From NCBI GenBank assembly GCA_963743885.1, contig CAVURJ010000001.1:204949-268948 (forward strand): a stretch of 64,000 nucleotides of DNA. Direction: 5' to 3'. The stretch's first letter is position 1. Every line of letters begins with the position of its first letter. A program made the translations under genes and the position numbers. Shown here piece by piece: positions 4,030-33,937 of the stretch. Under the pieces are notes generated by a model. It had not been told where the DNA came from and did not search any database. It saw only the letters and a program-made list of their open reading frames with translations. Origin of the DNA: Candidatus Moraniibacteriota bacterium. GTDB lineage: Bacteria; Patescibacteriota; Minisyncoccia; Moranbacterales; UBA1568.

Positions 4030-4030
4030 T

Positions 4031-10896: not shown

Positions 10897-10954
10897 AAGC
10901 GCAGAGATGAAAAAAGCGGCACACCCTGGAATTTCAGGGGTGCCGCCTTTCTTG

Positions 10955-11496: not shown

Positions 11497-11590
11497 TTAT
11501 AAAATCTCCTTTCTTTGGAGTGTGTGGGAAGGAACTGGAAGGAGCAGTGTATCGGAAAGCGGTTTTTCCGTCAACAGAAAGGAGTTTGAT

Positions 11591-12229: not shown

Positions 12230-12281
12230 TCCGGCGGTTTTTTCTTGATATTTCGGTTCGTGTACGCTAGGATGCAGGCAA

Positions 12282-13055: not shown

Positions 13056-13167
13056 TGAGCGCGGCGATAGGGTGCGCATCATGCGAGAGGGGGCATGAAA
13101 GGACGGGCGGCAGGAATATCCTGTAGGCCCGTTTTTTGTCATCAGAGAGGGATTTTTCCGGAAATAC

Positions 13168-13305
13168 TTGACAGAATTTTAATAGTGTATATACTACACT
13201 TAGTACTTCGATAGAGCAGAGTGAACGAGGGGAGGGAAGGAGGAGAAAGAAGACAGGCGCCACGGGCGCTTTTCCACAGACTACTTAGTGTAGTATGTAC
13301 ACTAC
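13168..13305 (+). promoter_or_regulatory. sigma70-like promoter (TTGACA-16-TATACT) with an overlapping palindromic operator, plus a second operator copy
   Basis: Operators at 13183-13205 and 13284-13305 share an AGTGTA-N5-TACACT core. The same motif is found upstream of pncB and of pnuC-nadR. Confidence 0.5.
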
Positions 13306-13418
13306 AGAAACGAGAGGGATGCTGGCGGGACGCCTCTTCTCCGAAAGGGAGGGGAGACGCCTCGGAATCATCCGAGGAAGCAGTTCATTGACAATCAATC
13401 AAAGCAAAGGAGCTCATC

Positions 13419-14264
13419 ATGGCAGCCAAAGCGAATGCATACAAGGGCCTCAAGGTGCACCTCATCGTCATCGATCCGCAGAACGACTTCATGGACAGTC
13501 CAGAAGCAGCTCTGCCGGTGCTGGGCGCAAACGCGGATATGCAGCGGCTGGCTGCGCTGATCGATCGGATCGGCGGCCGGCTCGATGATATTCACGTGAC
13601 GCTCGACTCACACCGCGTCATCGACGTCGGACATCCGGGTATGTGGCGCGATTCGGACGGCAACGTCCCGAATCCGTTCACCATCATCTCGGCGGCCGAC
13701 ATCGAGAGCGGCATCTGGGCGCCGCGCAATCCGGGTTTCCGGGCACGTCTTCTGGACTACGCCCGCACGCTCGAGAAGAACGGCAACTACCCGCTCATGG
13801 TCTGGCCGGAGCACTGCATTATCGGGACCCCCGGGCACAATGTCCAGGCGGACCTGATGGCAGCGCTCAAGCGCTGGGAACGACGGGAGTTCGCCAACGT
13901 CGACTACGTGGTCAAGGGCACCAACACCTTCACTGAGCACTACGGTGCTCTCCAGGCGGAAGTCCCCGATCCCGCAGATCCGACGACCACTCTCAACACC
14001 GGTTTCCTCGATGTTCTCGCGCAAGCGGACATCGTGGCGATCGCTGGCGAGGCGCTGTCGCACTGCGTGAAATCGACGGTCTCCCAGATCGCCGACAACA
14101 TCGGTCCCGAGCAGATCAAGAAGTTCCATATCTTGACCGACTGTTCGAGTCCGGTGTCGGCGGTTCCGGGTGGTCCTGATTTCCCAGCCATCGCGCAAGC
14201 GTGGCTTCGGGAAATGGAAGGCCGCGGGATGAAACTCGTGACCTCTGCCGATTTCCTGGCCTGA
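13419..14264 (+). CDS. pncA: isochorismatase-family hydrolase, probable nicotinamidase
   Basis: LIVIDPQNDFMD and a catalytic Cys in ALSHCVKS. Preceded by the NAD-regulon operator and RBS aaaggag. Confidence 0.6.
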   Translation: MAAKANAYKGLKVHLIVIDPQNDFMDSPEAALPVLGANADMQRLAALIDRIGGRLDDIHVTLDSHRVIDVGHPGMWRDSDGNVPNPFTIISAADIESGIWAPRNPGFRARLLDYARTLEKNGNYPLMVWPEHCIIGTPGHNVQADLMAALKRWERREFANVDYVVKGTNTFTEHYGALQAEVPDPADPTTTLNTGFLDVLAQADIVAIAGEALSHCVKSTVSQIADNIGPEQIKKFHILTDCSSPVSAVPGGPDFPAIAQAWLREMEGRGMKLVTSADFLA

Positions 14265-14300
14265 TATTTCTGGCCACTCTACAACGAAAGGAGAAACATC

Positions 14301-15053
14301 ATGCCGAGACTCAATCAGGAAGAAGGGATGGGCAGCCATCGGATCGGCGGCGGGAACTTCACCTTTACCGGTGCCCGCATCGATCAGTTGGGGGCGACCG
14401 AGTATACGCTCGTGACGGTGGCAGTCGATGTCACCGGATCGACGGCGCGGTTTGCCGATGATCTGCGGGCGATGCTCGTGACGGCGGTGGAAGCCTGCAA
14501 GAAGTCGCCGCGTTCGGACAACCTGCTCCTGCGGGCCATCACGTTCTCGACGGCAGTCGGCGGCGTGAGCGAACTGCACGGCTTCAAGCCGCTGGCAGAA
14601 ATCGATCCGAACGCGTATCCGGTATTTTCTCCGGATGGGCTGACACCGCTCTACGACGCGGTCTACTCGTCGGTCGGAGCGATGACGGAATACGGCGAGC
14701 AGCTCATGCAGAATGACTATCTCGCCAACGCCATCGGCTTCATCATCACCGACGGGCTGAACAACGCCGGGACAGCGACGCCCAAGATGATCCGTGACGA
14801 GATCGGAAGTGTGGCGGCCAAGGAACGGCTCGAATCGCTCGTGACGATCTTGATCGGGATCAACGCGGCCGAGTATGAGCGGGAGCTCCGCGAGTTCCAG
14901 CACGAAGCCGGCATCGGGCAGTATATCGATGCGGGCGACGTGACCAAGGCGAAGCTTGCCAAGCTCGCTGACTTCGTTTCGCAGTCGGTATCCAGCCAGT
15001 CTCAAGCGTTGGGCACCGGCGGTCCGAGCCAGAATATCCAGGCCGTCATCTGA
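14301..15053 (+). CDS. vWA domain protein (TerY-like)
   Basis: MIDAS LVTVAVDVTGST. It is the first gene of a vWA / PP2C / kinase triad. Confidence 0.75.
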   Translation: MPRLNQEEGMGSHRIGGGNFTFTGARIDQLGATEYTLVTVAVDVTGSTARFADDLRAMLVTAVEACKKSPRSDNLLLRAITFSTAVGGVSELHGFKPLAEIDPNAYPVFSPDGLTPLYDAVYSSVGAMTEYGEQLMQNDYLANAIGFIITDGLNNAGTATPKMIRDEIGSVAAKERLESLVTILIGINAAEYERELREFQHEAGIGQYIDAGDVTKAKLAKLADFVSQSVSSQSQALGTGGPSQNIQAVI

Positions 15054-15131
15054 TGGTCCGGAGTACGGGGCGGCAGGAGATCTCTCCTTCCGCCCCTTTT
15101 TTTCTTCGAAGTGTATGAGAGGAGAGAAATC

Positions 15132-16052
15132 ATGGATATCAGGAATGCTGACCAGTATTTCCACATCGGATACTCGCATCTCATCGCGGGGAAACCGTGC
15201 GAGGACTACGCGCTCTCTGACATCTACGGAGAAGCGGCGGTAGCGATAGTGTCCGACGGCTGTTCGACCGGAGCCCATACCGACATCGGCTCGCGCATCG
15301 TGGCGCTCTCGATGGCGGGGGCGGTCCGCGATCAGTTGTCTGGCGGGAAGGGTTTGTCCGGCAGCCAGTCGGCGCGGGAGATCCGCAAGCGTCGCGGAGA
15401 GATCATCGCGGAGAGCAAGAGCATCCTTGGTCTCGAGGATCGGAATTTGCTCGCGACCTCTGTCGCCGCGGTATCTGCTTCACACGGCGCGATGGTCTTC
15501 GTGGACGGGGATGGCGTCGTCGCCTTCAAGTATCGCGATGGACAGTCTGTCCTCTGGCGATTCGAATGGGACGGCAACATGCCTTTCTACCCCGCGTACA
15601 GCGGAGAAGACCAGGAGCGTTTCGTGGCGGCGCATGGGGGCGATCCGGCAGTGGTCCGTTTTCGGCAGTCCGTCTGGGTATGCGGAAGCGATGGCACGCT
15701 CGAGGATAAAGGAGAGCGGTTGTGGACGCTTGCGGAAGGGATGGCGGGCATCACGCTCTTCGTCCCAGGCTCGCATCTGTCTGCCGAGCTGGAATACATC
15801 GCGGTCTTTACCGATGGTGTCACCCAGATTGCGGAGACGGATTGGAAGGACGCAGCACTCGGATTTCTGTCCTTCAAGAGTACGGCTGGCGAATTCGCGA
15901 AGCGCCGGATGATGAGCGGACTCCGGGATCTGCGCAAGGCGGGACGGGAGCCGCTCGACGACATCGCGTATGCGGTGCTTCACTTCAACTCTGACGAAAC
16001 CAAGGAGGCGGATCATGGCACAAGCGAAGAGCAATCTCAAGGTAACGCTTGA
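15132..16052 (+). CDS. PP2C-family Ser/Thr protein phosphatase
   Basis: AVAIVSDGCSTGAHTDIGS, VFVDGDGVVAF, and AVFTDGVTQ match PP2C metal-binding motifs. RBS aggaga precedes ATG 15132; the ORF is open from GTG 15111. Confidence 0.6.
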   Translation: MDIRNADQYFHIGYSHLIAGKPCEDYALSDIYGEAAVAIVSDGCSTGAHTDIGSRIVALSMAGAVRDQLSGGKGLSGSQSAREIRKRRGEIIAESKSILGLEDRNLLATSVAAVSASHGAMVFVDGDGVVAFKYRDGQSVLWRFEWDGNMPFYPAYSGEDQERFVAAHGGDPAVVRFRQSVWVCGSDGTLEDKGERLWTLAEGMAGITLFVPGSHLSAELEYIAVFTDGVTQIAETDWKDAALGFLSFKSTAGEFAKRRMMSGLRDLRKAGREPLDDIAYAVLHFNSDETKEADHGTSEEQSQGNA

Positions 16053-17748
16053 AGGCCGCGGGACGCTCGTCCTCCGGCCAAGCGATCACATCGCGACGGG
16101 CGGGGAGGGTTCGGTATACCGTGCCGGAGGCATGGTCGTGAAGGTCTACACCGATCCAGCACATATGCAGCGGGATGATATGGCCGGCAAGATCAGGCTG
16201 CTTTCTGGCCTGAAGCATCCGTCCATCGTCGCGCCGCACGGATTGGCGCTCGGCCAGAGCGGCGAGCCGATCGGGTACTACATGCCCTTCGTCCCGGGCG
16301 AGCCGCTGACACGCGCATTCACGAACGATTTCCGTATCCGCGAGGGTTTCGGTGATCGGGAGACGAGGCAGCTCGTCGATCGGATGCGCGAGACGGTTCG
16401 GTTCGCCCATGGAAGACAGGCTATCCTCGTCGATGCGAATGAGCTCAACTGGCTCGTGAAGCCGGGCAGCAAGAATGGTCCCGAGCCGTACGTCATCGAC
16501 GTCGATTCTTGGGCGGTCGGTCGGTGGCCAGCGAAGGTCATCATGCCATCCATCCGTGATTGGCAGTCAAAGGGATTCGACGAGGGGACGGACTGGTTCG
16601 CCTGGGGAGTTGTCACCTTTCAGGTGTTCTCAGGCATTCATCCGTACAAGGGCAGTCTGGATGGGTATAAGCGCGGTGATCTGGAAGGCCGGATGCGGGC
16701 GAAGGCTTCGGTCTTCACGCCAGGCATCGGGCTCAACCAGGCAGTGCGGGACTTCTCGTCCATTCCTGGGCCGCTCCTCAATTGGTATGAGGCGGCGTTT
16801 CAGGGGAGCGAGCGGTCAGAGCCGCCATCGCCGTTTCAGACCGGAGCACCGACAGCGAAATTGGCTCCGGTACGGCGAGCGGTCGCGACGGCCCAGGGAC
16901 TACTCGTCTACGACAAGTTGTTCGATGGCACGGGCGATCCGGCGATCAGAGTCTTCCCTTCCGGTGTCGTCATGACCAAGAAGGGGCGGCTCATCGACCT
17001 CTCCACGAAGCGTGAGATCGGGCAACCGCTCTCACGTGACGGCGAGGTCATCCGGGTGGAGGGCGGCTGGCTCAAGGCGGACTGGAAGGGCGGGCAGGCG
17101 GAGTACTCATTCGTCTCGAACACCCTTTCCGAAGAAGCCGTCTCGGTCCAAGCGAGCGTCTATCGCGTCGTGCGAAGTAGCAATCGGATGTTCGCAGTGA
17201 CGGACACGGGCCTCACCGAGCTCACCGTGCGTCTGTTCGCTCGCCCAGTGCTCTCGCTCGGACGGACATGGGGCGTCATGCGTCATGCTCTCCGGTGGTT
17301 CGACGGTGTGGGCGTGCAGGATGCTCTCGGGGCGATGTATCTCGTCGCACCGTTCGGCACCGAAAGCTGCGCGTACGTGCGGGTACCCGAGCTCGACGGG
17401 CTCCGGGTGATCGCTGCCAAGGCCGGGCATCGTTTCGTCTCAGCCATCGCGGCCGATGTGAACGGGATGTATCGGAAGCTCGAGTTCGCATTCGATAGCG
17501 AGTACCGGAGCTATACGCTGTGGCAGGGCGTGACGGATGATCCGGATCCCAATATCGCCATCCTGCCCAAGGGAGTGTGTGCCACGATTGTGGAGGACGG
17601 TGAGCTCGTCATCTTCGTCCCGGCGAACGGCCAGACGAACAAGGTGAAGGATCACCGCATCACGACCGCTCTCGCCCTCGCCAACTGGGAGGATCGAGTG
17701 GTCTACGTCTCCCAAGGCGAAGTGTGGCAGGTGCGACTCAAGCAGTAG
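16015..17748 (+). CDS. atypical protein-kinase-like protein with a ~300-aa beta-rich C-terminal domain
   Basis: GGEGSVYRA glycine loop, VKVY, HGRQAILVDANELNWLV catalytic-loop-like, IDVDSWAV, and DWFAWGVVTFQVFSGIHPY. RBS aaggagg precedes ATG 16015. The start overlaps the PP2C gene end. Confidence 0.6.
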   Translation: MAQAKSNLKVTLEGRGTLVLRPSDHIATGGEGSVYRAGGMVVKVYTDPAHMQRDDMAGKIRLLSGLKHPSIVAPHGLALGQSGEPIGYYMPFVPGEPLTRAFTNDFRIREGFGDRETRQLVDRMRETVRFAHGRQAILVDANELNWLVKPGSKNGPEPYVIDVDSWAVGRWPAKVIMPSIRDWQSKGFDEGTDWFAWGVVTFQVFSGIHPYKGSLDGYKRGDLEGRMRAKASVFTPGIGLNQAVRDFSSIPGPLLNWYEAAFQGSERSEPPSPFQTGAPTAKLAPVRRAVATAQGLLVYDKLFDGTGDPAIRVFPSGVVMTKKGRLIDLSTKREIGQPLSRDGEVIRVEGGWLKADWKGGQAEYSFVSNTLSEEAVSVQASVYRVVRSSNRMFAVTDTGLTELTVRLFARPVLSLGRTWGVMRHALRWFDGVGVQDALGAMYLVAPFGTESCAYVRVPELDGLRVIAAKAGHRFVSAIAADVNGMYRKLEFAFDSEYRSYTLWQGVTDDPDPNIAILPKGVCATIVEDGELVIFVPANGQTNKVKDHRITTALALANWEDRVVYVSQGEVWQVRLKQ

Positions 17749-19077: not shown

Positions 19078-19116
19078 CCCCATAGGCTGCAAAGCTTATG
19101 GGGGATTTTTTTATGA
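19078..19116 (+). terminator. rho-independent terminator
   Basis: The sequence ccccataggctgcaaagcttatggggg is followed by attttttt. Confidence 0.55.
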
Positions 19117-19240
19117 AAATATTAGCGTACCTGGATCATGTGCGTTTTTTGTTTGGGAGGAATATACTTGGGGTAGAAGTAGAAAATGTGGTCACCCCCC
19201 ATCCATTAGGGGAAACTAGCTCTAAGGAATAAAGAAAGAC

Positions 19241-19927
19241 ATGGGAGTAAATCTAAACGAAAATAAACTCCGAAAAGCTGAAGTAGAGGCTTTCAAAAAT
19301 GGCATCAGGCTACATTTTGATGCCATTAAGCTTTTTGAGAATAAATCGTATCCCAGCGCCTATGCCCTATCGGTTTTATCTTTGGAGGAATTCGGAAAAC
19401 AACGTCTAATTGATGAAATACTCTTTCGTTACATTGAGCATAAGGGAGAATTTGAAAACGATAAACAGTTTACTGATTTTTGTAAGGATTTTGAAAACGG
19501 GATGTTAAGTCATTCTTTGAAACAGGGATTTGCTGTATCAGACGATTTTCCGTTCATGAGGGGACGTAACAGAATGCAGAGAGGATTTTTATATAAAATG
19601 TTTAATCACAAGAATGGAAGGAAATTGATTGATGGTTGGAAAATGAGATCAATTTATGTCGGGTTTGAACACAATAGCTTAAAAGGGAGAATACAAACAC
19701 CGCTAAGCTTTATTAAGAGAAAAAAAGCACAAGATCAAATAACCGCCATAAATGATTATTTAGTAAATTTTATAATTTACCTTAGACAAGGCAGATGGAC
19801 GCTCGATAATGAAAATCTTATGAGGTTTTATAACACCAATCTTTTGAATAAACTCGTTGATATTTGGAAGAACAGACATGAGGACACTAGAAGCAGGCTA
19901 GATACCTTTTTGAGTTCTCGGAAGTAA
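19241..19927 (+). CDS. AbiV-like abortive-infection protein (tentative)
   Basis: AIKLFENKSYPSAYALSVLSLEEFGKQ is reminiscent of the AbiV-family N-terminus. First gene of a low-GC island. Confidence 0.3.
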   Translation: MGVNLNENKLRKAEVEAFKNGIRLHFDAIKLFENKSYPSAYALSVLSLEEFGKQRLIDEILFRYIEHKGEFENDKQFTDFCKDFENGMLSHSLKQGFAVSDDFPFMRGRNRMQRGFLYKMFNHKNGRKLIDGWKMRSIYVGFEHNSLKGRIQTPLSFIKRKKAQDQITAINDYLVNFIIYLRQGRWTLDNENLMRFYNTNLLNKLVDIWKNRHEDTRSRLDTFLSSRK

Positions 19928-20050
19928 TAATTGGTTAATGATTTTTTTGCTAATTTTTTGTTTGAATTGATTGCGTGATATAGTAAAGGCAGTTGACAAA
20001 GGTAAGAGATTTTTATTATAGGTAGCTAATTAAGGCCATAAAATATTTTT

Positions 20051-20563
20051 ATGATAAATGTAAATAAAATAAACGATATATTAGGATTTTTTTCGGACAA
20101 TGTTTCGGATCTAACTGTTACTAAGATAATGAAGTTATTTTATTATGTTGATTTTGTTTCTTTTGCAGAAAAAAATACTTCTGTTACAAACGATGTTTAT
20201 TATAAGCTTCCTTACGGTCCAATTCCCTCTTTTATTAAAAACGAGATCAACACTCTGACTTTCAAAACCATGCTTGGAGCAGAGGCTGGAGATTTGCAAA
20301 TTTCAAAAAATTTCGGAGTGGAACAGAAAAAGATAGGCAAGTATGATGCTTATGTTGTTAAAAATAATGGAAAAAAGAGTTCTCTTGAGAACTTATCTGG
20401 TTATGAGGTAGAACTCATAAAAAGGATATTAAATAAGTTTGGAAAGAAAACGGCAAAGGAACTAACTGATCGTACTCACAAAGAGAAACCATATCTTTTG
20501 ACAAATGAAAATTCAATTATTGATTATAAACTTGCTAGTTTTCTTAATACCAGTTCTATTTAA
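20051..20563 (+). CDS. Panacea-domain (DUF4065, SocA-like) protein, a putative antitoxin
   Basis: TKIMKLFYYVDFVSFAEKNTSVTNDVYYKLPYGPIPSFI matches the Panacea/DUF4065 pattern. Confidence 0.55.
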   Translation: MINVNKINDILGFFSDNVSDLTVTKIMKLFYYVDFVSFAEKNTSVTNDVYYKLPYGPIPSFIKNEINTLTFKTMLGAEAGDLQISKNFGVEQKKIGKYDAYVVKNNGKKSSLENLSGYEVELIKRILNKFGKKTAKELTDRTHKEKPYLLTNENSIIDYKLASFLNTSSI

Positions 20564-20568
20564 CAAGT

Positions 20569-21117
20569 ATGGGAGACTACGGGTTTGGCGATGTTTATGA
20601 TTGCAGAAATGTTCCAGAAGTGGAACATTTTATTGTTATATTAGGATTTCAGGAAATTAAGGGGAAGAAGATTATATTTTATGAAAAAGTAACTTCACGA
20701 GTTTATAAAGCCTTCAAGAAACTCAGTGATTTTTTTGAGGGTAACTGTAATGGGCAATGCAAGAAGTTCAAGCATAATTTCAAAGATAAGACCCCCATTT
20801 TCCATTACGGGAAATTATGCTTTACGTTATTTTTAGATAAGGACGAAAACTATCTCAATGAAGATAGCATGGTTGTGATAAAGGGTGATCCAGAGAAGAC
20901 GGACGAAACTATTATGGAGCAATGGATTAAGGCCGGACTAGCTAAATCGAAAACGAGAATTTCAAATGTAGACATTTATAAGTTAATGGCTATATTAAAT
21001 AACTCGGATAATTTAAGTAGTCCAGTAATCCATCATATCCGTCTCGCCTTTAGTGGGGTTGATAAAATGATAAAGATGCAAAACCTTCAGAAGGCTAGTA
21101 AGAAAAAGAAGAAATAG
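20569..21117 (+). CDS. hypothetical protein, candidate toxin partner of the Panacea protein
   Basis: Starts 6 bp downstream of the Panacea gene on the same strand. No recognisable domain. Lys-rich tail. Confidence 0.4.
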   Translation: MGDYGFGDVYDCRNVPEVEHFIVILGFQEIKGKKIIFYEKVTSRVYKAFKKLSDFFEGNCNGQCKKFKHNFKDKTPIFHYGKLCFTLFLDKDENYLNEDSMVVIKGDPEKTDETIMEQWIKAGLAKSKTRISNVDIYKLMAILNNSDNLSSPVIHHIRLAFSGVDKMIKMQNLQKASKKKKK

Positions 21118-21158
21118 TGGTTTGTAAAAAGAAGAAAAGGGAGAAGAAAAGGGGTCAA

Positions 21159-21240
21159 GTACCTTTTTAAGAAAGAAATGACACACCCGAGGCGCGGGAA
21201 GAATCTTTCATGACGGATCGGTCCGGCCCGCAGCATCGCA
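21159..21240 (+). repeat. island repeat copy A (~100 bp) with an embedded SD plus mini-ORF MTHPRRGKNLS* (21178-21213)
   Basis: About 85% identical to 22326-22432 and 23258-23367. Followed by hairpin terminators at 21286-21320. Confidence 0.6.
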
Positions 21241-21491
21241 AGACTAGAGAATGGGTTAAGTAGAACAATTTCCCCACTACAAAAAGTAACACGAAATGAC
21301 GGCCGTCGTTTCGTGTAACATTTTTGTTTTGATTTACCCTGTGAAATCCGACTTTGTCGGTCCGCCTACTGGCGGAATTTCACAGGGTGAATATTGACCG
21401 GTTTTCATGGCTGGATGTATACTTATATATGTAAGTCATGTAAACATCTTGGTTACCTGAGAAGTTGGTAACGGGATGAGCAAAAACAATT

Positions 21492-22299
21492 ATGAAAAAG
21501 ATAGAAGTGCAGGGGATTGAGATAGCCATAGTCTCTCAAAAAGAGCATGACTATATCTCTTTGGCTGATATGCTGAGAGCGAAAGATGGGGATTTCTTCA
21601 TATCTGATTGGCTGAGAAATAGGAATACGGTCGAATTTTTAGGAATCTGGGAACGGATTAATAACCCGGATTTTAATTATGGCGAATTCGCCATAATTAA
21701 AAGCCAAGCAGGGCTCAATAGCTATAAAATCAGTGTTAAGGAATGGGTGAAGAAAACGAGGGCTAGGATTGAAATCAACAGCCGGACGATATGGCGGAAC
21801 TTTCGCTCATAAGGATATTGCCTTCGAATTTGGTATGTGGATATCGCCGGAATTCAAGTTGTACCTTATTAAGGAGTTCCAGCGACTGAAAGTTGAGGAA
21901 AATGAAAGACTGATACTAGGTTGGGACGTGAAGCGGATGCTGACGAAGATGAACTATAAGATTCATACGGATGCGATAAACGAGAACATTGTCATTCCAC
22001 AGAAACTGTCGCAGAAGGATGCGAATATGACGTATGCGAATGAGGCGGACGTTTTGAATATGGCGCTTTTTGGCATGACAGCGAAAGCCTGGAGAGATAA
22101 GAATAGGAAAAAGGAAGGGAACATGCGGGACTATGCTGATGTGACGCAGCTCGTGTGTCTCGCCAATCTTGAGGGGTTGAATGCGGAGTTCGTCAGGATG
22201 GGAATGACGCAAAAAGAACGATTGCTCAGGTTGAATGAGGCAGCGATAGCGCAGATGAAATCGCTTTCGGGAAACAAGAATATCCGGAAGTTTCTATAA
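21492..22299 (+). pseudogene. KilA-N domain protein interrupted by a frameshift (ORFs 21492-21812 and 21769-22299)
   Basis: N-part ISLADMLRAKDGDFFISDWLRNRNTVEFL and C-part GGTFAHKDIAFEFGMWISPEFKLYLIKEFQRL together form one KilA-N domain. The two frames overlap at 21769-21812. Confidence 0.55.
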
Positions 22300-22325
22300 G
22301 AATTGAGAAGATAAGGAATCGAACG

Positions 22326-22432
22326 CCTTTTCAAGGAAGAAATGATGCATCCGAGGCGTGGGAAGGATCTTCTGTGACGAATCGATCCGGTCCGCAGCAT
22401 CGCGGGAGCAGGGGAATCTGAATATCACCCAG
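22326..22432 (+). repeat. island repeat copy B with mini-ORF MMHPRRGKDLL* (22342-22377), followed by a terminator
   Basis: See copy A. Downstream aaaacagccctgtctagagctgtttttt is a terminator. Then comes the palindrome gttaactattgactatatagttaac. Confidence 0.6.
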
Positions 22433-22553
22433 TAAAACAGCCCTGTCTAGAGCTGTTTTTTGTATCGAGAAAGAAAGTCTTGTTAACTGCTGTAGTGTAA
22501 GTATTCTATTGTTAACTATTGACTATATAGTTAACATATGTTAACATAAGGAT

Positions 22554-22808
22554 ATGGAAAAACAATTCTATACAACCAAAGAGATTTCGGAGTTGCTTGG
22601 CGTTAGCCGAGTGACTGTTTTCAAACAGATCAAATCTGGAAAGATTAAGGCTCAGAAAGTCGGGCGTAACTATATCATCCTCAAAGAGGACATGCCGGAA
22701 ATGCTGAACAAATCGTTGAAAGAATTTGATAAATCGAATATTCAGGATGCAGTGAAAAAAGTGGTAGACGAGTACAGCGAGACCCTTAAGCTTCTTGGGA
22801 AGGAATGA
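22554..22808 (+). CDS. HTH (excisionase/MerR-type) DNA-binding protein, putative Phd-like antitoxin
   Basis: YTTKEISELLGVSRVTVFKQIKSGKIKAQKVGRNYII HTH. Its stop overlaps the start of the Doc gene. Confidence 0.6.
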   Translation: MEKQFYTTKEISELLGVSRVTVFKQIKSGKIKAQKVGRNYIILKEDMPEMLNKSLKEFDKSNIQDAVKKVVDEYSETLKLLGKE

Positions 22809-23269
22809 GAATAAAGCAGATCTCAATCGTAGAGGTGGAGTATGTGGCGCATCGTCTTGCGCAGGAGACGATGAAGTGGAGCGAGCCCATACCTGATTTC
22901 AGCACTCGTTATCCGAGAGTGCTTGAGAGCTGTCTCGCAGCTCCTTTTCAGACATTCAGTCGGAAAGTTTTGTATAAAGGTCTTCATGGAAAAGCCGCCA
23001 TGTTGTTTTATCTGATGGTGAAGAACCATCCTTTTGAGAATGGAAATAAGAGGATTGCGATGACAACACTTCTTTATTTCCTGTATAAGAACGGGAAATG
23101 GATCAAAGCGGATGAAATGGAGTTTTATAATTTCGCGAGATGGGTGGCTGAGAGCAGCCCGAAGTTCAAGGATGAGACTGTTGCGGCTGTTCGGAAATTC
23201 GTTACGACTAATATGATAGACGTCGCTACTCAAGCATTAGAAAAGAAAGAGGATCGAGTACCTTTTTAA
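22805..23269 (+). CDS. doc: Doc (death-on-curing) family toxin (Fic fold)
   Basis: Doc variant motif HPFENGNKRIAMTTLLYFLYKNG. Translationally coupled to the upstream HTH gene. Confidence 0.8.
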   Translation: MRIKQISIVEVEYVAHRLAQETMKWSEPIPDFSTRYPRVLESCLAAPFQTFSRKVLYKGLHGKAAMLFYLMVKNHPFENGNKRIAMTTLLYFLYKNGKWIKADEMEFYNFARWVAESSPKFKDETVAAVRKFVTTNMIDVATQALEKKEDRVPF

Positions 23270-23367
23270 GGAAGAAAAGATGCATCCGAGGCGCGGGAAG
23301 AATCTTCCATGATGGATCGGCCCAGTCCGCAGTATCGCGGGAGCAGGAGAATCTGAATATCACCCAG
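23258..23367 (+). repeat. island repeat copy C with mini-ORF MHPRRGKNLP* (23280-23312)
   Basis: The repeat begins inside the last codons of doc (RVPF*), which means it supplies the doc stop codon. Confidence 0.6.
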
Positions 23368-23469
23368 CAAAACAGCCTTCATTTGAGGATTGTTTTTTGT
23401 TCCCTGCAATGGATGTTCTGATTAGGTGCTTAAAAATGGCTTGATATAAGGACATTGTGCATATACTGG

Positions 23470-23579
23470 GAAAATATGTAAAAAGTAGTGAATATTGTTA
23501 TATTTATGAGTAAATTCACTAAATATTGACAAAAAGTAGTGAATATACTACAATTAACGCATACTATTCACTAAAAAAT
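23470..23579 (+). promoter_or_regulatory. promoter (TTGACA 23526-23531, TACAAT 23549-23554) flanked by AGTAGTGAATAT / ATTCACTAAA inverted and direct repeats
   Basis: aaaaagtagtgaatat occurs twice, and attcactaaa occurs twice in inverted orientation to it. This looks like an operator architecture upstream of the Fic gene. Confidence 0.45.
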
Positions 23580-24461
23580 ATGGCAATCACTCAACCGATT
23601 AAGAATCGTATCCAAGCGTTGAAGAAGGAGTTTGATGCCTTGAAAAAAGGAAGGGAATCGCTTTTGGTGCTGCTTGATGAAGCCGAGATTCCGGAAAGCG
23701 TCTATAATTCCAACGCTATTGAGAATTCGACGCTTACGCTCAAGGAGACGGAGAAGATCCTACTTGATGTATCGGTGTCGCGCGACGTATCGGTGCGGGA
23801 AGTTTTTGAGACGAAGAATCTCGCTCGCGTCATCAACTATATCCGCACGAAATCCCAAGGAAAAGAGATCGATAGGGAAATGGTCCTGCTGTTGCACCAG
23901 ATGCTCATCGGGGGCATCAAAGATGAAATCGCGGGACGCTTCCGGACAAAAGGGGAGTATGTCCGGGTAGGAACATATATTGCTCCGGCACCGGAGCATG
24001 TAGAGCTGATGATCGCTTCAATCTTTTCTGGATACGAAAGCGAGCATGATTCGTATTTTCTCGATAAGATGGCAAAGTTCCATCTGGACTTTGAGAATAT
24101 CCATCCATTCTGCGATGGCAACGGCCGCATCGGTCGGGTGCTTGCCTGTTACCAATTGCTTCGATTGGGATTTCCTTTGATTATCATTCGGGACAAGGAA
24201 AAGGAAATGTACTACCAGGCATTTGCTGATTATCGCGATGGAAAGAATACGAAGACGATGGAAAAGGTGTTTTCGCTGGCACTTACGGAATCACTGTATA
24301 AACGCATTACGTATTTGAAGGGAGAAAAAATCATGACACTCGCTGACTATGTGAAGAAACACAAAAAATCAGCCGCTGCCATGTCGAATGCTGCTCGTCG
24401 TCAGAACATACCAGCTTTCCGCGAAAAGGGCGTTTGGAAGATCGGGGAGAAGTTTAGATGA
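23580..24461 (+). CDS. Fic family protein
   Basis: HPFCDGNGRIGRVLACYQL. Start is taken at MAITQPIKN; the TTG at 23526 in the ORF track is the -35 box. Confidence 0.85.
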   Translation: MAITQPIKNRIQALKKEFDALKKGRESLLVLLDEAEIPESVYNSNAIENSTLTLKETEKILLDVSVSRDVSVREVFETKNLARVINYIRTKSQGKEIDREMVLLLHQMLIGGIKDEIAGRFRTKGEYVRVGTYIAPAPEHVELMIASIFSGYESEHDSYFLDKMAKFHLDFENIHPFCDGNGRIGRVLACYQLLRLGFPLIIIRDKEKEMYYQAFADYRDGKNTKTMEKVFSLALTESLYKRITYLKGEKIMTLADYVKKHKKSAAAMSNAARRQNIPAFREKGVWKIGEKFR

Positions 24462-24483
24462 AATTAAGAGTCGGAGCGTCCAG

Positions 24484-24520
24484 CAAAACAGTCCTCATCC
24501 GGGGGGGGGCTGTTTTTTTG
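24484..24520 (+). terminator. rho-independent terminator at the right edge of the low-GC island
   Basis: The sequence aaaacagtcctcatccgggggggggctgttttttt. Confidence 0.55.
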
Positions 24521-25490: not shown

Positions 25491-26741
25491 ATGGAAACGC
25501 TCAAGAGATTGTGGGGCAAGGACGAGCCGGTGGTCAGCAGCTTGCTCGAGACGGATGTCTACAAGATCCTCATGTTGTATTTCATCTGGCGGTATTTCCC
25601 GAGCTTGCGAGTGAAGTTCGGATTCACCAATCGTACCCGCACGGTGCGCTTGGCCGAATCACTCGACATCGGGCTGCTCCGAGAGAACATCGAGCACGTG
25701 AAGACGCTCCGGTTCTCGGATGCGGATATTGCGTACATCCGGTCGTGGCAGATGATGCCGGAGGAATTCCTTCTGGCACTTCGGGACCTGCAGCTCTCGG
25801 ACATTGCGGTCGAGAAGACGCGTGATGGACAGCTCCGCATCGAGCCCAGCGGGCTCTGGTTCAATAGCACGCTGTGGGAACTCTTTATCCTGCCGATGAT
25901 CACGGAACTACGAGCGCGCCAAGCGATCGGCGAAAGCGATGCCGCGCACGAAGCAGTGATCAAAGACGGAGAAGAGCGCCTGCTTGTCAAGATCCCGACG
26001 CTCAAGAGTCTGCACTGGAAGATCGCGCTGTTCGATCTCCGTCGCCGGCTGACGGGACGCTGGGAGCGGCATACGTCGCGTATCCTCTACGAGGAGATCC
26101 CGGAGCGGCTCTCTGGCATCTCGAACGTCGCTCTGGCGCGCGAGATGGGAGTCGAGCCGATGGGGACCAATGCGCACGAACTGCCGATGGCACTGGTCGC
26201 GCTGCGTTCCCACGAGGGGCCGGAAGCGATGCGGGCGGCGCTCTACGAGGTGCTCGAGAAGTGGCAGAGTCTCTTCGGCCACAAGGCGCTCATCATGCTG
26301 CCGGATACGTTCGGAAGCGACTACTTCTTCCGCAACCTGCCGAGCAGATACCTTCGGGACTTCCGCGGTTCGCGGCAGGACTCGGGTGATCCGCTCGCCT
26401 ACGGGGAGGCTCGCATCCGCGACTATCGCGAAGCTGGCATCGATCCGACGCAGAAGCTCGTGCTGTTCTCAGACGGGCTCACGCCGGAGAAGATGCAGGA
26501 GCTCGAGATGCATCTCTCCGGAAGGATCGGCGGCGGCTTTGGTTGGGGGACCAACAAGAGCCATGATGTCGCTGCGCTTCCGCCCATGTCGATCGTGATG
26601 AAGCTCATCGAAGCGGCAGGCAATCCGGCGGTCAAGCTGTCCGATAACATCGACAAAGCGACCGGATTTGAGCCAGGCGTGGTCGAAGCCAAGCGGGTCT
26701 TCGGATACCGCGCGGAGTTTCGCGAAGCGCCGATCTACTGA
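25491..26741 (+). CDS. pncB: nicotinate phosphoribosyltransferase
   Basis: LETDVYKILM, MGTNAHELPMAL, FRGSRQDSGDP...IDPTQKLVLFSDGL, and IVMKLIEAAGNPAVKLSD are collinear with PncB. Confidence 0.85.
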   Translation: METLKRLWGKDEPVVSSLLETDVYKILMLYFIWRYFPSLRVKFGFTNRTRTVRLAESLDIGLLRENIEHVKTLRFSDADIAYIRSWQMMPEEFLLALRDLQLSDIAVEKTRDGQLRIEPSGLWFNSTLWELFILPMITELRARQAIGESDAAHEAVIKDGEERLLVKIPTLKSLHWKIALFDLRRRLTGRWERHTSRILYEEIPERLSGISNVALAREMGVEPMGTNAHELPMALVALRSHEGPEAMRAALYEVLEKWQSLFGHKALIMLPDTFGSDYFFRNLPSRYLRDFRGSRQDSGDPLAYGEARIRDYREAGIDPTQKLVLFSDGLTPEKMQELEMHLSGRIGGGFGWGTNKSHDVAALPPMSIVMKLIEAAGNPAVKLSDNIDKATGFEPGVVEAKRVFGYRAEFREAPIY

Positions 26742-26860
26742 AACGCCAACCTGTGGGAATATCTCGGAACATCGAGGTATCCCCACTCTTTTTCGGACCA
26801 TCATGTGTGGTGATCCGAAAGAGGGATATTTCAAGCAAGATCTTTAACAAGGAGACCGAT

Positions 26861-28516
26861 ATGAAAATCATCGCATGCTCTACCAATCCGATTCCTGGTG
26901 ATGTCGCCGGAAACCTGAAACAGGTCCTGGCGGCATATCAAGGGGCGGCGGATCAGCAGGTTGATCTCGTCGTGTTTCCAGAGTTCGCACTTTTGGGATA
27001 TCCGATCGATGATCTCATCCGCTATGCGGACGTGCTGGCGGCAGAGGAAGCTGCGATCGAAGAGCTTCGCCGCCAAGTCGGCAGCATTGGCATCGTGATC
27101 GGCGTGGCAGAACGCAATCAGGGAGCAGGGAAGCCTTTCTTCAATAGCGCTCTCGTCATCCGCAATCACGCGATCGTGCATCGAGTCCGCAAGGCGAATC
27201 TGCCGACGTACGGGGAGTTTGATGAGTCGCGCTGGTTCGAGCCAGGGGCCGATGCGGCCGCAGTCTTCGACTATGACGGGCAGCGGATCGGCATCATCAT
27301 CTGCGAGGATATCTGGGTGTACGCCAATCGGGACGAGAAAGGTCGGGCCCTCTATCACCGCAACGTGGTCGAGGAGATGGCTCGGCTCAATCCTGATATC
27401 GTCATCTCGATCAATGCCTCGCCCTACTGGTGTGGCAAGCGCGATGTGCGGCTGGAAGTCGTCCGTGAGGCGGCGCAGGCGATGGGCTCTCCAATCGTCG
27501 TGTACGTCAATCGTTTCGGCGGACAGGATGAGCTGGTGTTCGATGGCGCGAATTTCGCTCTCGGATGCAAGGGGCAAGTCATCGCTTCGGCCATGCCGTT
27601 TCAGGGGGATGATCTGCTGGTCGTCGATACGGAGTGTTCGGATGAAGTTCCGTTCCGTTCTGATACGGGAAGTGCCGAGGATCAGTATGATGCCTTGGTG
27701 CTCGCGACGCGAGACTATGCTCGGAAGAGCGGGTTCTCGCAGGCGGTGCTCGGACTCTCCGGTGGGATCGATTCGGCGCTGACACTTGCGATCGCAGCCG
27801 ATGCACTCGGTGCCGGGAACGTGCAGGCGGTTATGATGCCGTTCCGATATACATCGGTGATGAGCCGGGAAGACGCGGCGGCAGAAGCGGAAGCGCTCGG
27901 TGTCCGGTATTCCGTCATCGCGATCGAGCCGCTCTACGATGCGTTCGCGGCGGCGCTTGCTCCGGAGTTCGCGGGCAGGGCAGCGGATGTGACCGAAGAG
28001 AATCTGCAGGCCCGTATCCGGGGGACTATCCTCATGTCGCTCTCGAACAAGTTTCGATCGTTCGTCCTGACGACCGGCAACAAGAGCGAGATGGCGGTGG
28101 GGTATGCGACGCTCTATGGCGATATGGCCGGCGGCTTCGCAGTCCTCAAGGATGTGCCGAAGACCGATGTCTATGCGCTGGCGCGGTATCGCAACGGTAT
28201 CAGCCGAGTCATCCCTGACAGCGTGATCACACGTGCGCCATCAGCCGAGCTCGCCCCTGGGCAGGTCGATCAGGATTCTCTGCCGGCGTACGATATCCTC
28301 GACGCGATAGTCGATCGGTACGTGGTCGATGGATCGTCTGCGGATGAGATCGTCGCGGCCGGATACGATGCCGGTACGGTGGAGCGAGTGATCGGCATGG
28401 TGCGCCGGGCCGAGTACAAGCGCCGACAAGCGCCGCCTGGTCCGAAGGTGACCAAGCGGGGGCTTTCTCCTGATGCTGGTCGGCGTGTACCGATCACGTA
28501 TCGCCATGGTTCCTGA
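26861..28516 (+). CDS. nadE: glutamine-dependent NAD+ synthetase (nitrilase domain plus NAD synthetase domain)
   Basis: N-terminal CN-hydrolase domain and PP-loop LGLSGGIDSALT. RBS aaggag precedes ATG 26861; the ORF is open from 26753. Confidence 0.85.
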   Translation: MKIIACSTNPIPGDVAGNLKQVLAAYQGAADQQVDLVVFPEFALLGYPIDDLIRYADVLAAEEAAIEELRRQVGSIGIVIGVAERNQGAGKPFFNSALVIRNHAIVHRVRKANLPTYGEFDESRWFEPGADAAAVFDYDGQRIGIIICEDIWVYANRDEKGRALYHRNVVEEMARLNPDIVISINASPYWCGKRDVRLEVVREAAQAMGSPIVVYVNRFGGQDELVFDGANFALGCKGQVIASAMPFQGDDLLVVDTECSDEVPFRSDTGSAEDQYDALVLATRDYARKSGFSQAVLGLSGGIDSALTLAIAADALGAGNVQAVMMPFRYTSVMSREDAAAEAEALGVRYSVIAIEPLYDAFAAALAPEFAGRAADVTEENLQARIRGTILMSLSNKFRSFVLTTGNKSEMAVGYATLYGDMAGGFAVLKDVPKTDVYALARYRNGISRVIPDSVITRAPSAELAPGQVDQDSLPAYDILDAIVDRYVVDGSSADEIVAAGYDAGTVERVIGMVRRAEYKRRQAPPGPKVTKRGLSPDAGRRVPITYRHGS

Positions 28517-28602
28517 GTCGGAGGACGGCCTTTCACGGGTGTGGATACGATGTATCCCACCCGTTTTTTCTTTGCATGAATTTGACCCCGCACCGCTTGA
28601 GC

Positions 28603-28642
28603 TTGACAAGAATATTTAAAGGTGTATACTATACACTAAGTA
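28603..28642 (+). promoter_or_regulatory. promoter TTGACA-16-TATACT with overlapping operator ggtgtatactatacactaagta
   Basis: GGTGTA-N5-TACACT half-sites. Lies upstream of pnuC-nadR. Confidence 0.5.
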
Positions 28643-28766
28643 AGGAAGTGGCTCGTGGTCGACGCGTCTCTCTCGTACGGTAATAGTGTAATAAGTACAA
28701 TAACTAAATACGGTAGGAGGGAAAGGACGGGAAGAGGGAGTGTAACCAGTAATATCACATACGACT

Positions 28767-29486
28767 ATGATAGCTTCATTCTTCGATATCAATAACGTGT
28801 TCTTCACGCTCTGGGACTATCCTATGAGCTACCTCGAGTTCTTCGGGACGATATTCAATATCCTCTGCGTCTGGCTGACGACCCGGAAGAGCATCTGGAA
28901 CTGGCCGGTCGGCATCGCTGCGGTCATCCTCTTCGGCGTGCTGTTCTACCAGATTCAGCTGTACTCGGATTTCATCGAGCAGGTCTACTATCTCGCGACG
29001 GGCATCTGGGGTTGGATCGTCTGGAGCCGCGTACGTGAGCAGTCGGCCAAGAAGGGCAGACTGGCGTCTGATGTGAAGCCTGCGACTGCCGCGCAGTGGG
29101 CGATCGTGGGAGTGGTGCTCCTCTTCGGGACGCTCGCGCTCGGGGGACTGATGGCGCGGATCGATACCATATTTCCCGAGTGGTTCCCGGAAGCGGCTTC
29201 TTTCCCGTATCTCGATGCTTTCACGACGGTGGCGTCGTTCGCGGCGCAGGTACTGCTCATCCTCAAGGTCGTCGAGAACTGGTACCTCTGGATCGCGGTC
29301 GATATCATCGGCGTGTGGCTCTACTATGAGAAGGAAGTGAAATTCGTCTCCGTGCTCTATTTCATCTTCCTCATCCTGGCAACTAAGGGGCTGCTCTCGT
29401 GGAAGAAGGAGTCCAAGCAATCGGAAAGCGGGGAATCGGCGCCTGTTCTGGGTGAGCCAGAAAGAGAGGGGGTGCCGGCCATATGA
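28767..29486 (+). CDS. pnuC: nicotinamide riboside / NMN transporter PnuC
   Basis: Multi-TM protein with a PnuC-like N-terminus NNVFFTLWDYPMSYLEFFGTIFNILCVWL...W..VGI. Confidence 0.75.
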   Translation: MIASFFDINNVFFTLWDYPMSYLEFFGTIFNILCVWLTTRKSIWNWPVGIAAVILFGVLFYQIQLYSDFIEQVYYLATGIWGWIVWSRVREQSAKKGRLASDVKPATAAQWAIVGVVLLFGTLALGGLMARIDTIFPEWFPEAASFPYLDAFTTVASFAAQVLLILKVVENWYLWIAVDIIGVWLYYEKEVKFVSVLYFIFLILATKGLLSWKKESKQSESGESAPVLGEPEREGVPAI

Positions 29487-30484
29487 AGCGAGGCATCGTT
29501 GTCGGGAAATTCTACCCGTTTCATACCGGGCATGCCTACCTCATTGAGGCGGCGCTCAAGGGGAGCGACCAGGTGACGGTGCTCGTCTGCGATCGCTCTG
29601 ACCAGGTCTTTCCAGGAGAGACGCGGGCGGAGTGGATCCGCGAGGTATTTCCCGGTATCGAGGTCCGCGTGATCCGCGATATCGGGCACGACGATGATTC
29701 CGAACTTTGGGCGCGCTATACGCTCGAGTTCCTGGGATATCGTCCGGATCTCGTGTTCACGTCCGAAGACTACGGTCCGGCGTATGCGAAGTTTCTTGGA
29801 GCGGAGCATGTCTCGGTCGATAGGCAACGAACGGTTGTCCCGATCTCGGGGACGGAGATTCGCAAGAATCCATATGCTGCTTGGGAGTACATGAGTGCGC
29901 CGGTACGGGCGAGTCTGGTCCGCCGCGTCGCGCTTGTCGGAGCGGAATCGACCGGTACTACGACGCTGTCACGGGCGCTCGCGGAGCACTTCCAGACTGC
30001 CTGGGTGCCGGAGTTTGGACGCTTCTATACTGAGGGCAAGCAGCTGTCAGGGACGCCATGGCAGACAGGAGAGTTCACCTTTATTGCTGATACGCAGAAC
30101 CGCATGGAAGAAGCGTATGCTCGGCAGGCGGACAGGGTCCTCTTCTGCGATACCAATGCCTGGGCGACGCGACTGTGGCATGAGCGCTACATGGGATCGC
30201 TTGATCCGTCGGTCGACGCACTCGCTCGAGGTCGCCGCTATGATTTGGTTATCCTGACTGGCGATGAGATCCCCTTCGTGGATGATGGCATGCGCGACGG
30301 CGAGCATATCCGCCATGCGATGCAGGCGCGTTTTCGCGAGATGCTTGAGCAGGAAGGCATACAGTATATAGAAGTATCCGGCAGTATTGAGGAGCGCCTA
30401 GCACAGGCGATCCCGGCGTGCGAGCAGCTCCTCTCGGATGGAAGCGATGTCTTCGCGGGGCTGCCGAGGATCGCGGGTGTATGA
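29483..30484 (+). CDS. nadR: NadR-type bifunctional NMN adenylyltransferase / ribosylnicotinamide kinase (no N-terminal HTH)
   Basis: IVVGKFYPFHTGHAYLIEAA (NMNAT) and VALVGAESTGTTTLSRALAEHF (RNK P-loop). Its start overlaps the pnuC stop. Confidence 0.8.
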   Translation: MKRGIVVGKFYPFHTGHAYLIEAALKGSDQVTVLVCDRSDQVFPGETRAEWIREVFPGIEVRVIRDIGHDDDSELWARYTLEFLGYRPDLVFTSEDYGPAYAKFLGAEHVSVDRQRTVVPISGTEIRKNPYAAWEYMSAPVRASLVRRVALVGAESTGTTTLSRALAEHFQTAWVPEFGRFYTEGKQLSGTPWQTGEFTFIADTQNRMEEAYARQADRVLFCDTNAWATRLWHERYMGSLDPSVDALARGRRYDLVILTGDEIPFVDDGMRDGEHIRHAMQARFREMLEQEGIQYIEVSGSIEERLAQAIPACEQLLSDGSDVFAGLPRIAGV

Positions 30485-30543
30485 TTGACACTTATAGCTG
30501 CGGGCGTATACTGGAAGCGGACAATTCATCAAACTTCTCTCCT

Positions 30544-32460: not shown

Positions 32461-32503
32461 GCTTTTTTTAGGCAAAATAATTGGAAAATCACCATTTTTA
32501 TGA

Positions 32504-32532
32504 TTGACGGAAAGGTTGGCCCGCGCTATACT
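32504..32532 (+). promoter_or_regulatory. sigma70-like promoter TTGACG-17-TATACT
   Basis: ttgacggaaaggttggcccgcgctatact. The TTG at 32504 listed as an ORF start is the -35 box. Confidence 0.5.
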
Positions 32533-33895: not shown

Positions 33896-33937
33896 CTGGT
33901 AGCTTGTTAGCTTCCCTAGCTTCGTTAGCATGAAAGG

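Follow-up and report, generated by a model that had tools for sequence, protein, structure and literature searches.

A mosaic low-GC island of toxin–antitoxin and abortive-infection modules in a Moraniibacteriota chromosome

Introduction

Candidate phyla radiation (CPR) bacteria have genomes well under 1 Mb; why, then, does one of them give 5.4 kb to five addiction or defence modules, and how did these come to lie side by side? The question is raised by a 64,000-nucleotide stretch of a Candidatus Moraniibacteriota metagenome-assembled genome (MAG; GenBank assembly GCA_963743885.1, contig CAVURJ010000001.1, positions 204,949 to 268,948; hereafter, the window), in which an AT-rich island encodes an AbiV-family protein, a Panacea antitoxin with a small partner protein, a broken KilA-N gene, a helix-turn-helix (HTH) protein coupled to a Doc toxin, and a Fic protein. 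An earlier reading of the letters and open reading frames (hereafter, the sequence-only reading) had proposed that the island was acquired horizontally. We conclude, with a probability of roughly 0.8, that it is a mosaic in a Patescibacteria (Moraniibacteriota-like) chromosome, its five modules having been gathered singly from the mobile pool of lower-GC Patescibacteria. Established here are the domain and fold assignments, the module boundaries, the absence of the island from syntenic relatives, and the homologues of three modules scattered over other CPR-type contigs.

A sharply bounded AT-rich island

The island proper runs from 19104 to 24484 (window coordinates are used throughout) and has a GC content of 39.5%, compared with 54.3% for the remainder of the window, where GC measured in 1-kb windows had a standard deviation of 4.5% and a minimum of 40%. 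At a resolution of 400 nt, GC passed from 0.52–0.65 (14.0–19.2 kb) to 0.28–0.48 (19.2–24.4 kb) and back to 0.53–0.65 beyond; the directly adjoining flanks had 55–64% GC, and GC at third codon positions (GC3) was 25–58% in island genes versus 68–79% in flanking genes. Windowed GC and GC3 thus confirmed the sharp drop between two terminators that the sequence-only reading had described, and hairpins with T-runs were recovered at both ends of the island, at 19078–19103 and 24485–24516, with a third terminator-like hairpin inside it at 21289–21316. The left-edge terminator (19078–19116, + strand), an 11-bp stem followed by a T-run, ends a native gene encoding a 384-aa deoxyribosyltransferase-like/NUDIX protein, and GC falls directly after it; the right-edge terminator lies at 24477–24520 (+ strand).

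Every gene call made earlier was reproduced with Pfam, PADLOC and NCBIfam, and all island genes lie on the + strand. The island appears to consist of five co-oriented, self-contained and apparently self-promoted modules: promoter-like sites were located for the HTH–Doc and Fic modules, the Panacea module has a conserved upstream region, and self-promotion of the remaining modules is assumed. Composition is uneven within the island, with 29–35% GC in AbiV (34.6%) and the Panacea pair and 40–47% in KilA-N, HTH–Doc and Fic.

The island is absent from syntenic relatives

Using the nicotinate phosphoribosyltransferase (NAPRTase) gene downstream of the island, we found three syntenic relatives (L001–L003), two in Candidatus Moraniibacteriota MAGs and one in a MAG labelled Micavibrio. 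Each contained a conserved cluster of genes for a 281-aa protein, a 250-aa protein, PP2C and a 592-aa protein, followed after 1.0–2.8 kb by NAPRTase, and lacked the island; between cluster and NAPRTase lay a small cytidylyltransferase-like gene, joined in L003 by a dihydrodipicolinate synthase (DHDPS) gene and an unassigned 218-aa open reading frame (ORF). In the window the corresponding interval is 7.7 kb long: the island is preceded there by the deoxyribosyltransferase-like/NUDIX gene and followed by a pyroglutamyl peptidase gene, both of native GC. Since the content of this interval differs between the window and its relatives, the island site, between the conserved kinase/phosphatase gene cluster and NAD-salvage genes, is a variable spot of the chromosome. 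The outcome that would speak against acquisition, the same genes at the same place, was seen in none of the three relatives.

An abrupt change of GC in a MAG, with modules like those of other CPR bacteria, might also arise if a low-GC fragment of another Patescibacteria population had been misjoined into the contig. Such a chimera is unlikely, because contigs of the Logan assembly of ERR12035942 cross both junctions: one of 17.7 kb leads from native genes into AbiV, the Panacea pair and KilA-N, and one of 6.4 kb leads from KilA-N through Doc and Fic to Peptidase_C15, NAPRTase and the next gene. The Logan assembly and the MAG may derive from the same reads. The island also contains a host-type Y-shaped hairpin element (described below), which further reduces the chance of a misjoin to a very slim one.

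Modules probably gathered from separate sources

Three of the modules have scattered relatives at the DNA level, each in a different and unrelated context. Homology of the Panacea pair to six loci (L009–L014; 73–76% identity by blastn) starts at 19951–19970 and ends at 21026–21117, taking in both genes and about 100 nt upstream and halting at the stop codon; homology of KilA-N (76%) is limited to 21491–22302, and that of HTH–Doc (85% identity to L015, a contig of 47% GC) to 22507–23220. The contigs that hold these relatives have 30–49% GC, lower than the window, and the named protein relatives of the three traced modules are mostly Patescibacteria, including Moranbacteria, Wolfebacteria, Yanofskybacteria and others. 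The proposal of a horizontally acquired accessory island is accordingly supported by the shift in GC and GC3, the absence from three relatives and the scattered homologues, but transfer as a single block needs correction. Because the three modules occur in separate contexts and GC is not the same in the left and right halves of the island, accretion piece by piece is well supported as the probable mode of assembly.

The families represented here, KilA-N, an excisionase-type HTH, Doc ('prophage maintenance killer'), AbiV and Fic, are all common on phages and could be the moron or maintenance genes that outlasted the rest of a decayed prophage or phage satellite, especially as homologues of the Panacea pair lie beside ERF/YqaJ, primase and serine recombinase genes and KilA-N is already a pseudogene. 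Against such an origin, the island is devoid of genes for phage structure, replication or integration, a search for an att repeat was negative, and both the different contexts of the closest relatives of the three traced modules and the differing GC of the two halves point to separate acquisitions; we consider a prophage remnant improbable.

Several observations weigh against an acquired mosaic. The relatives used for the presence/absence comparison are too distant (NAPRTase identity to the window of 71%, 46% and 47% for L001–L003) to date the acquisition. The borders of the island bear no mark: there is no recombinase among the island genes, and no direct repeat brackets the island, the local alignment of the two junctions scoring 17 versus a shuffle mean of 16.7, with no att duplication. 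An integrase, a tRNA/tmRNA target and flanking direct repeats, by which an integrative island is recognised, are thus all missing from it. The sequence-only reading had likewise reported neither an integrase nor a tRNA anchor, and this stands for the island itself and, as regards tRNA genes, for the 21 kb around it, but 6.8 kb downstream a gene for a 327-aa Xer-type tyrosine recombinase (31292–32275, − strand) of native GC is present. Five native genes (NAPRTase, NAD synthase, PnuC, NadR-like and NrtR-like) lie between it and the island, and it scores 244 bits with XerD and 228 bits with the NCBIfam XerA/integron-integrase family model (cut-off 220), but it fails both integron-integrase models, with 116 versus 265 bits for TIGR02249 and 79 versus 435 bits for PRK15417.

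A Panacea antitoxin with a predicted MazF-fold partner

The Panacea module begins with a conserved, presumably promoter-bearing region (19951–20050, + strand) that accompanies the genes in other contigs. The PanA-type antitoxin gene (20051–20563, + strand) encodes 170 aa with a Panacea/DUF4065 domain only (Pfam SocA_Panacea, residues 26–148, 3.5 × 10−18, 67 bits versus a cut-off of 25.7), and 5 nt beyond it begins the gene for a 182-aa PanT-like protein (20569–21117, + strand). The sequence-only reading had named a Panacea protein with an unknown partner; the first part stands, and the partner can now be read, from its predicted structure, as a MazF-fold toxin.

This reading came from a family that is rare and unannotated. 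The 182-aa protein had no match in Pfam, PADLOC or NCBIfam. A word-indexed search gave 12 related proteins, the one named among them being from Candidatus Moranbacteria, and a profile searched exhaustively against 1.84 billion representatives gave 29 clusters at 50% identity, of 170–210 aa apart from a few fragments. An AlphaFold2 model built from the 12 sequences had a predicted local distance difference test (pLDDT) score of 70.5 and weak SH3/Tudor-like matches only, whereas one built from a 35-sequence alignment of the family resolved the fold, with a pLDDT of 91.5 and a predicted template modelling (pTM) score of 0.84. Because of this second model we read the partner as a MazF-fold toxin: the predicted structure contains the SH3-like barrel of the CcdB/MazF superfamily, to which a lysine-rich helix is added at the C-terminus. 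Two results pull the other way: none of the 12 family members matched Pfam PemK_toxin even at E = 5, and a profile search of the PDB returned chance matches only (E ≥ 0.09). The family-conserved columns are G7, D8, H20, S43 (in TSR), D99–S100, P108 and D135, and any equivalence to the catalytic Arg/Thr pair of the MazF substrate groove is hypothetical.

The pairing itself is consistent. A Panacea gene of 169–170 aa ends 5–7 nt before every PanT-like homologue examined (10 loci in 6 different contexts), and the neighbours of the pair vary from DpnII-type restriction-modification, primase, serine recombinase and ERF/YqaJ recombination genes to ordinary genes. PanA–PanT (PanAT) pairs have been verified by experiment, and their toxins include predicted distant MazF/PemK-like RNases that match no domain database (Kurata et al. 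2022, PNAS, PMC8832971). The island pair resembles these pairs in that the Panacea gene lies immediately upstream of, and nearly abuts, a small putative toxin gene and in that the pairing is kept across unrelated mobile contexts; its putative toxin resembles PanT of Pseudomonas moraviensis and Bifidobacterium ruminantium (PMC8832971), which likewise have no domain match but a MazF/PemK-like structure. Unlike known PanT, the island toxin family is separate in sequence, carries a helical lysine-rich C-terminal extension of about 50 residues and is very rare (the 29 clusters given above). Compared with MazF, Kid and PemK, the island protein has only 6–20% sequence identity and is longer (182 versus ~110 aa), and its antitoxin is Panacea rather than MazE or Kis. 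By analogy, the PanT-like proteins would form a new family of an already known kind of Panacea partner, for which RNase activity, toxicity and neutralisation are presumed.

An HTH_17–Doc module

Upstream of the HTH–Doc genes lies a putative promoter/operator (22507–22553, + strand) with three GTTAAC-containing palindromic sites and a promoter-like site at 22519–22547. Homology to L015 begins at 22507, and the GTTAAC-rich operator stretch ATTGTTAACTATTGACTATATAGTTAACATATGTTAACATA is identical in that contig. The first gene (22554–22808, + strand) encodes an 84-aa HTH_17/excisionase-type DNA-binding protein (Pfam HTH_17 3.1 × 10−11; TIGR01764 42.2 bits versus a cut-off of 28.8), presumably the Doc antitoxin and an autorepressor, and its stop codon overlaps the Doc start (ATGA). 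Doc itself (22805–23269, + strand; 154 aa) has the motif HPFENGNKR and matches Pfam Fic/DOC (4.6 × 10−11) and TIGR01550 (51.7 bits versus a cut-off of 38.65). The Doc toxin of the sequence-only reading is therefore upheld, but its 'Phd-like' partner is of the HTH_17/excisionase type: the protein upstream of Doc has no match to Phd/YefM and is not a Phd-type antitoxin. An 86-aa HTH_17 gene precedes Doc in both relatives examined (L015 and L016).

Like Doc of phage P1, the island Doc has the kinase-type motif HxFx(D/N)(A/G)NKR and follows a small antitoxin gene to which its translation is coupled; it differs from the P1 system in having a MerR-like HTH_17/excisionase partner in place of Phd/YefM and in a frame that runs on into the third copy of the repeat described below, which supplies its final few codons. 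Doc relatives number more than 3,500, the closest being 90% identical and the named ones coming from many Patescibacteria lineages; most have 138–142 aa and cover about 90% of the 154-aa island protein, and none of the homologues with long C-termini had a tail like the repeat-encoded one. In L015, the HTH–Doc module lies directly downstream of an apparent tRNA gene (770–1095 of that contig) interrupted by a group I intron; Rfam Intron_gpI matched 797–1044 with E = 1.7 × 10−7, under the gathering score, and ARAGORN called no tRNA.

AbiV, KilA-N and Fic

The AbiV-family gene (19241–19927, + strand), a single-gene abortive-infection module, was assigned by Pfam HEPN_AbiV (2.4 × 10−17, 64 bits versus a cut-off of 27.1), TIGR04498 (61.5 bits versus 27) and PADLOC AbiV (1.1 × 10−5). 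It shares with lactococcal AbiV the HEPN_AbiV/TIGR04498 family, a similar size and the single-gene arrangement; unlike it, the island protein is a distant member, as the PADLOC value indicates, and its defence role is putative.

The KilA-N/PDC-S22 pseudogene (21492–22299, + strand) comprises two ORFs, 21492–21812 and 21769–22299, which cover positions 5–98 and 101–272 of the PADLOC PDC-S22 model. Alignment with the intact genes of two other loci (L017 and L020) placed a 2-nt deletion near 21766, bearing out the frameshift that had been noticed from the sequence; the repaired product aligns over 99–100% of its length, at 83% identity, with intact proteins of 270 aa. No intact frame of ~270 aa is present, the Logan contig calls the same split, and the gene is, to judge from its sequence, dead. 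KilA-N also occurs in the MAG of L001, the closest relative genome, at another site beside the ribosomal-protein/SecY operon. A 38-nt palindrome, GGATTTTAATTATGGCGAATTCGCCATAATTAAAAGCC, lies within the coding sequence at 21668–21705 (+ strand) and is conserved among the KilA-N genes of other genomes; close to it, the assembly of ERR12035942 by Logan breaks into two contigs.

The last gene (23580–24461, + strand) encodes a 293-aa Fic protein matching Pfam Fic (7.9 × 10−20), PADLOC PDC-S04 (6.1 × 10−36) and PADLOC SoFic (4.5 × 10−27), with its start at the ATG at 23580, as in the Logan contig. Because it carries the active-site motif HPFCDGNGRIGR together with an N-terminal SNAIEN, we read it as a class-II, self-inhibited Fic. 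It thus combines in one chain, as do SoFic and other class-II Fic AMP-transferases, the core HPFxDGNGRxxR and an inhibitory (S/T)xxxE(G/N) helix (here SNAIEN), but it falls far under the SoFic equivalog level (NF046030, 35.2 bits versus a cut-off of 550). PDC-S04, which it matches at 6 × 10−36, is itself only a candidate defence gene. A putative promoter (23480–23579, + strand) contains TTGACA-17-TACAAT at 23526–23554 (11/12 matches), and the two copies of a direct repeat, AAAAAGTAGTGAATAT, that flank it are likely to be an operator. Viral contigs contained no relatives of the Fic protein.

Repeats at the module junctions

Copies of one repeat follow successive modules in the right half of the island. 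R1 (21141–21316 with its terminator; copy 21141–21297, core 21141–21260), R2 (22305–22461) and R3 (23240–23396), all on the + strand, are direct repeats of ~120–160 nt whose 100-nt cores are 79–83% identical in all pairs; the three copies noticed earlier at gene boundaries are thus real, although longer than the ~100 bp given for them. Two core motifs of the repeat each occur exactly three times in the 64 kb, compared with 0.00–0.01 occurrences expected. The positions of the copies are tight, within 0–25 nt of where the preceding module ends: R1 begins 24 nt past the PanT stop, R2 begins 3 nt past the end of the KilA-N homology, and R3 begins about where Doc relatives stop, from which it follows that the island Doc frame continues into R3 and ends at a TAA there. 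Each copy ends with a terminator hairpin, strong in R1 (21289–21316), A/U-rich in R2 (22434–22461) and at 23368–23397 in R3. The R2 and R3 terminators are alike and also resemble the one after Fic; since the 5' half of the right-edge terminator, CCAGCAAAACAGTCCTCAT, equals the R3 terminator at 17/19 positions, that terminator looks like a partial fourth copy. A profile of the repeat searched with nhmmer against the window and all fetched loci recovered R1–R3 only. Homologous modules elsewhere are without the repeat, which is therefore a property of the array, either this one or that of a donor, rather than of the modules themselves.

We tentatively regard the repeats as shared 3' tails, in which the terminator would insulate a module from its neighbours and the common sequence would provide homology by which modules could be added or swapped. 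This is the weakest point of our explanation, its support being the position of the copies. It is further strained by the left half of the island, where AbiV and the Panacea pair have no repeat between them, by the invariant columns of the repeat, which show no clustering, and by folding, in which the repeats as RNA or single-stranded DNA on both strands did no better than shuffles. Nor was another genome with the repeat found in the databases searched: three exact patterns gave 0, 0 and 1 matches in IMG/VR, the one being a chance match inside a coding region; five matches in JGI metagenomes were all chance 21-mers without extended similarity; and phage and plasmid collections gave no blastn match. 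Consensus folding of R1–R3 yielded a hairpin that is long but imperfect and has just one or two compensatory pairs, too few to count. Rfam had no family for the repeats at gathering thresholds or at E ≤ 5, and the reading of the repeats as tRNA fragments was rejected, there being no tRNA-like match at E ≤ 5.

The periodic layout of ORF then repeat, with all modules co-oriented, invites comparison with an integron-like cassette array, in which each module and its trailing repeat would be a cassette, the repeats attC-type sites, and a tyrosine recombinase the agent of insertion and excision. Toxin–antitoxin cargo is typical of chromosomal integrons, and the cargo here is of this kind; the repeat starts at or just past the stop codon and even supplies that of Doc; and the tyrosine recombinase 6.8 kb away passes the XerA/integron-integrase model (228 versus 220 bits). 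The repeat ends, however, lack the conserved R''/R' core (RYYYAAC ... GTTRRRY), and there is no element-wide dyad symmetry; folding as single-stranded DNA gave z scores of −1.9 to 0 on either strand and a different structure for each copy; the recombinase, native in GC and five native genes away, does not pass the integron-integrase models; and the HTH–Doc and Fic modules have promoter-like sites of their own. The attC reading of the repeats was rejected on the absence of core sites and attC fold, and we think a cassette array of this type decidedly unlikely.

The resemblance to integron cassette arrays and to Acinetobacter pdif modules is one of layout: in all of them, small independent modules rich in toxin–antitoxin genes alternate with copies of a single short sequence, and the array itself contains no recombinase. 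The island differs from integrons in having neither attC core sites, nor an attC-like fold, nor an integron integrase, and from pdif modules in that no dif-like 11-6-11 site was seen on reading the repeats by eye, with no formal scan. One could still imagine R1–R3 and the partial copy as recombination sites of an undescribed Patescibacteria cassette system, in which promoter-bearing toxin/defence modules, each trailed by a ~150-nt site that includes a terminator, would be captured successively by a host recombinase, possibly of the Xer type. We hold this to be improbable; if true, it would be a system integron-like in function, with unrelated sites and no dedicated integrase.

The repeats could instead be cis-regulatory leaders, since each contains a Shine–Dalgarno-like sequence, a micro-ORF of 10–11 codons (M-x-HPRRGK-x-L-x) and a terminator that would attenuate read-through to the next module. 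The sequence AAGGAAG (AAGAAAG in R1) lies a few nucleotides before the ATG, the same frame and a TGA stop are present in 3/3 copies (MTHPRRGKNLS at 21178–21213 in R1, MMHPRRGKDLL at 22342–22377 in R2 and MHPRRGKNLP at 23280–23312 in R3), two of the few substitutions in the micro-ORF are synonymous (CAC/CAT and CGC/CGT), and the terminator follows 50–110 nt downstream. There are, however, only three copies, between which the start codon shifts by one codon; the same two substitutions fit G-C/G-U pairs of the predicted hairpin; the promoter-like sites of HTH–Doc and Fic lie beyond the terminator, leaving little to attenuate; and Rfam gave no match. A leader function is therefore unlikely in our view, and we retain shared 3' tails as the tentative role of the repeats.

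Expected activities and significance

Biochemical activities and the net effect of the modules can be anticipated from what is known of their families. AbiV, as a single-gene abortive-infection protein, would act upon phage infection. As in a type II pair, the MazF-fold toxin, a presumed endoribonuclease, would be neutralised through binding by PanA. Free Doc would halt translation by phosphorylating EF-Tu; binding by the labile HTH_17 protein would prevent this, and the same protein would repress its own operon at the GTTAAC operators. The class-II Fic AMP-transferase would stay inactive, held by the inhibitory helix at its own N-terminus, until triggered. Together, the modules would stabilise the locus post-segregationally, provoke abortive infection under phage attack, or both.

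In our view the island is genuine but, as accessory islands go, not out of the ordinary: objects of this kind are well known, although the host is less so. The locus suggests that such modules move one at a time between CPR-type genomes of lower GC and build up at a variable site of the chromosome. New here are the rare PanT family, whose predicted MazF fold adds to the known partners of Panacea, and the orphan junction repeat; the HTH_17–Doc pairing is recorded as recurring in the related loci examined. Current concepts are unchanged, and the value of the locus lies in its annotation and in a source of testable toxin–antitoxin pairs from an uncultured lineage.

Other features of the window

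The island looks as if it interrupts one large neighbourhood related to NAD and nucleotides (7797–17748 and 25491–31230). Upstream, this neighbourhood encodes a cytidylyltransferase+CoaE fusion, a protein kinase, TrmB, PP2C, the 592-aa protein and a deoxyribosyltransferase-like/NUDIX fusion; downstream, it encodes NAPRTase, NAD synthase, PnuC, a NadR-like protein and NrtR. Two further patches of low GC carry genes of similar families. At 3.5–5.4 kb (40–44% GC), about 14 kb upstream of the island, lies a gene for a 465-aa Fic-domain protein (3989–5386, + strand; Pfam Fic 1.4 × 10−15), and an AbiEii-type nucleotidyltransferase toxin gene (34211–34891, + strand; Pfam AbiEii 1.7 × 10−14) lies in a patch of 45–48% GC about 2 kb past the Xer-like recombinase, with two ORFs without a family match (32498–33325 and 33332–33931, − strand) in between.

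The Y-shaped hairpin mentioned above occurs twice in the window. Copy 1 (21332–21392, + strand; minimum free energy (MFE) −38.3 kcal/mol, z = −9.0) falls within the island, 100 nt before KilA-N, and copy 2 (53079–53142, − strand; z = −3.1) lies in native DNA just upstream of an IF-2-like gene. An outer stem of 11–16 bp, GTGAAAT...ATTTCAC, encloses two short GC-rich hairpins, and inner stem 1 shows compensatory changes (CCGAC/GTCGG versus CCAGC/GCTGG). The element had no Rfam family and no match in viral contigs, and may represent a cis-regulator or some structured element specific to the host. Another strong hairpin, at 60844–60922 (+ strand; MFE −54.5 kcal/mol, z = −9.4), has 27-nt arms that are 93% complementary and themselves palindromic (CCCCGCGAAGGCGGGG).

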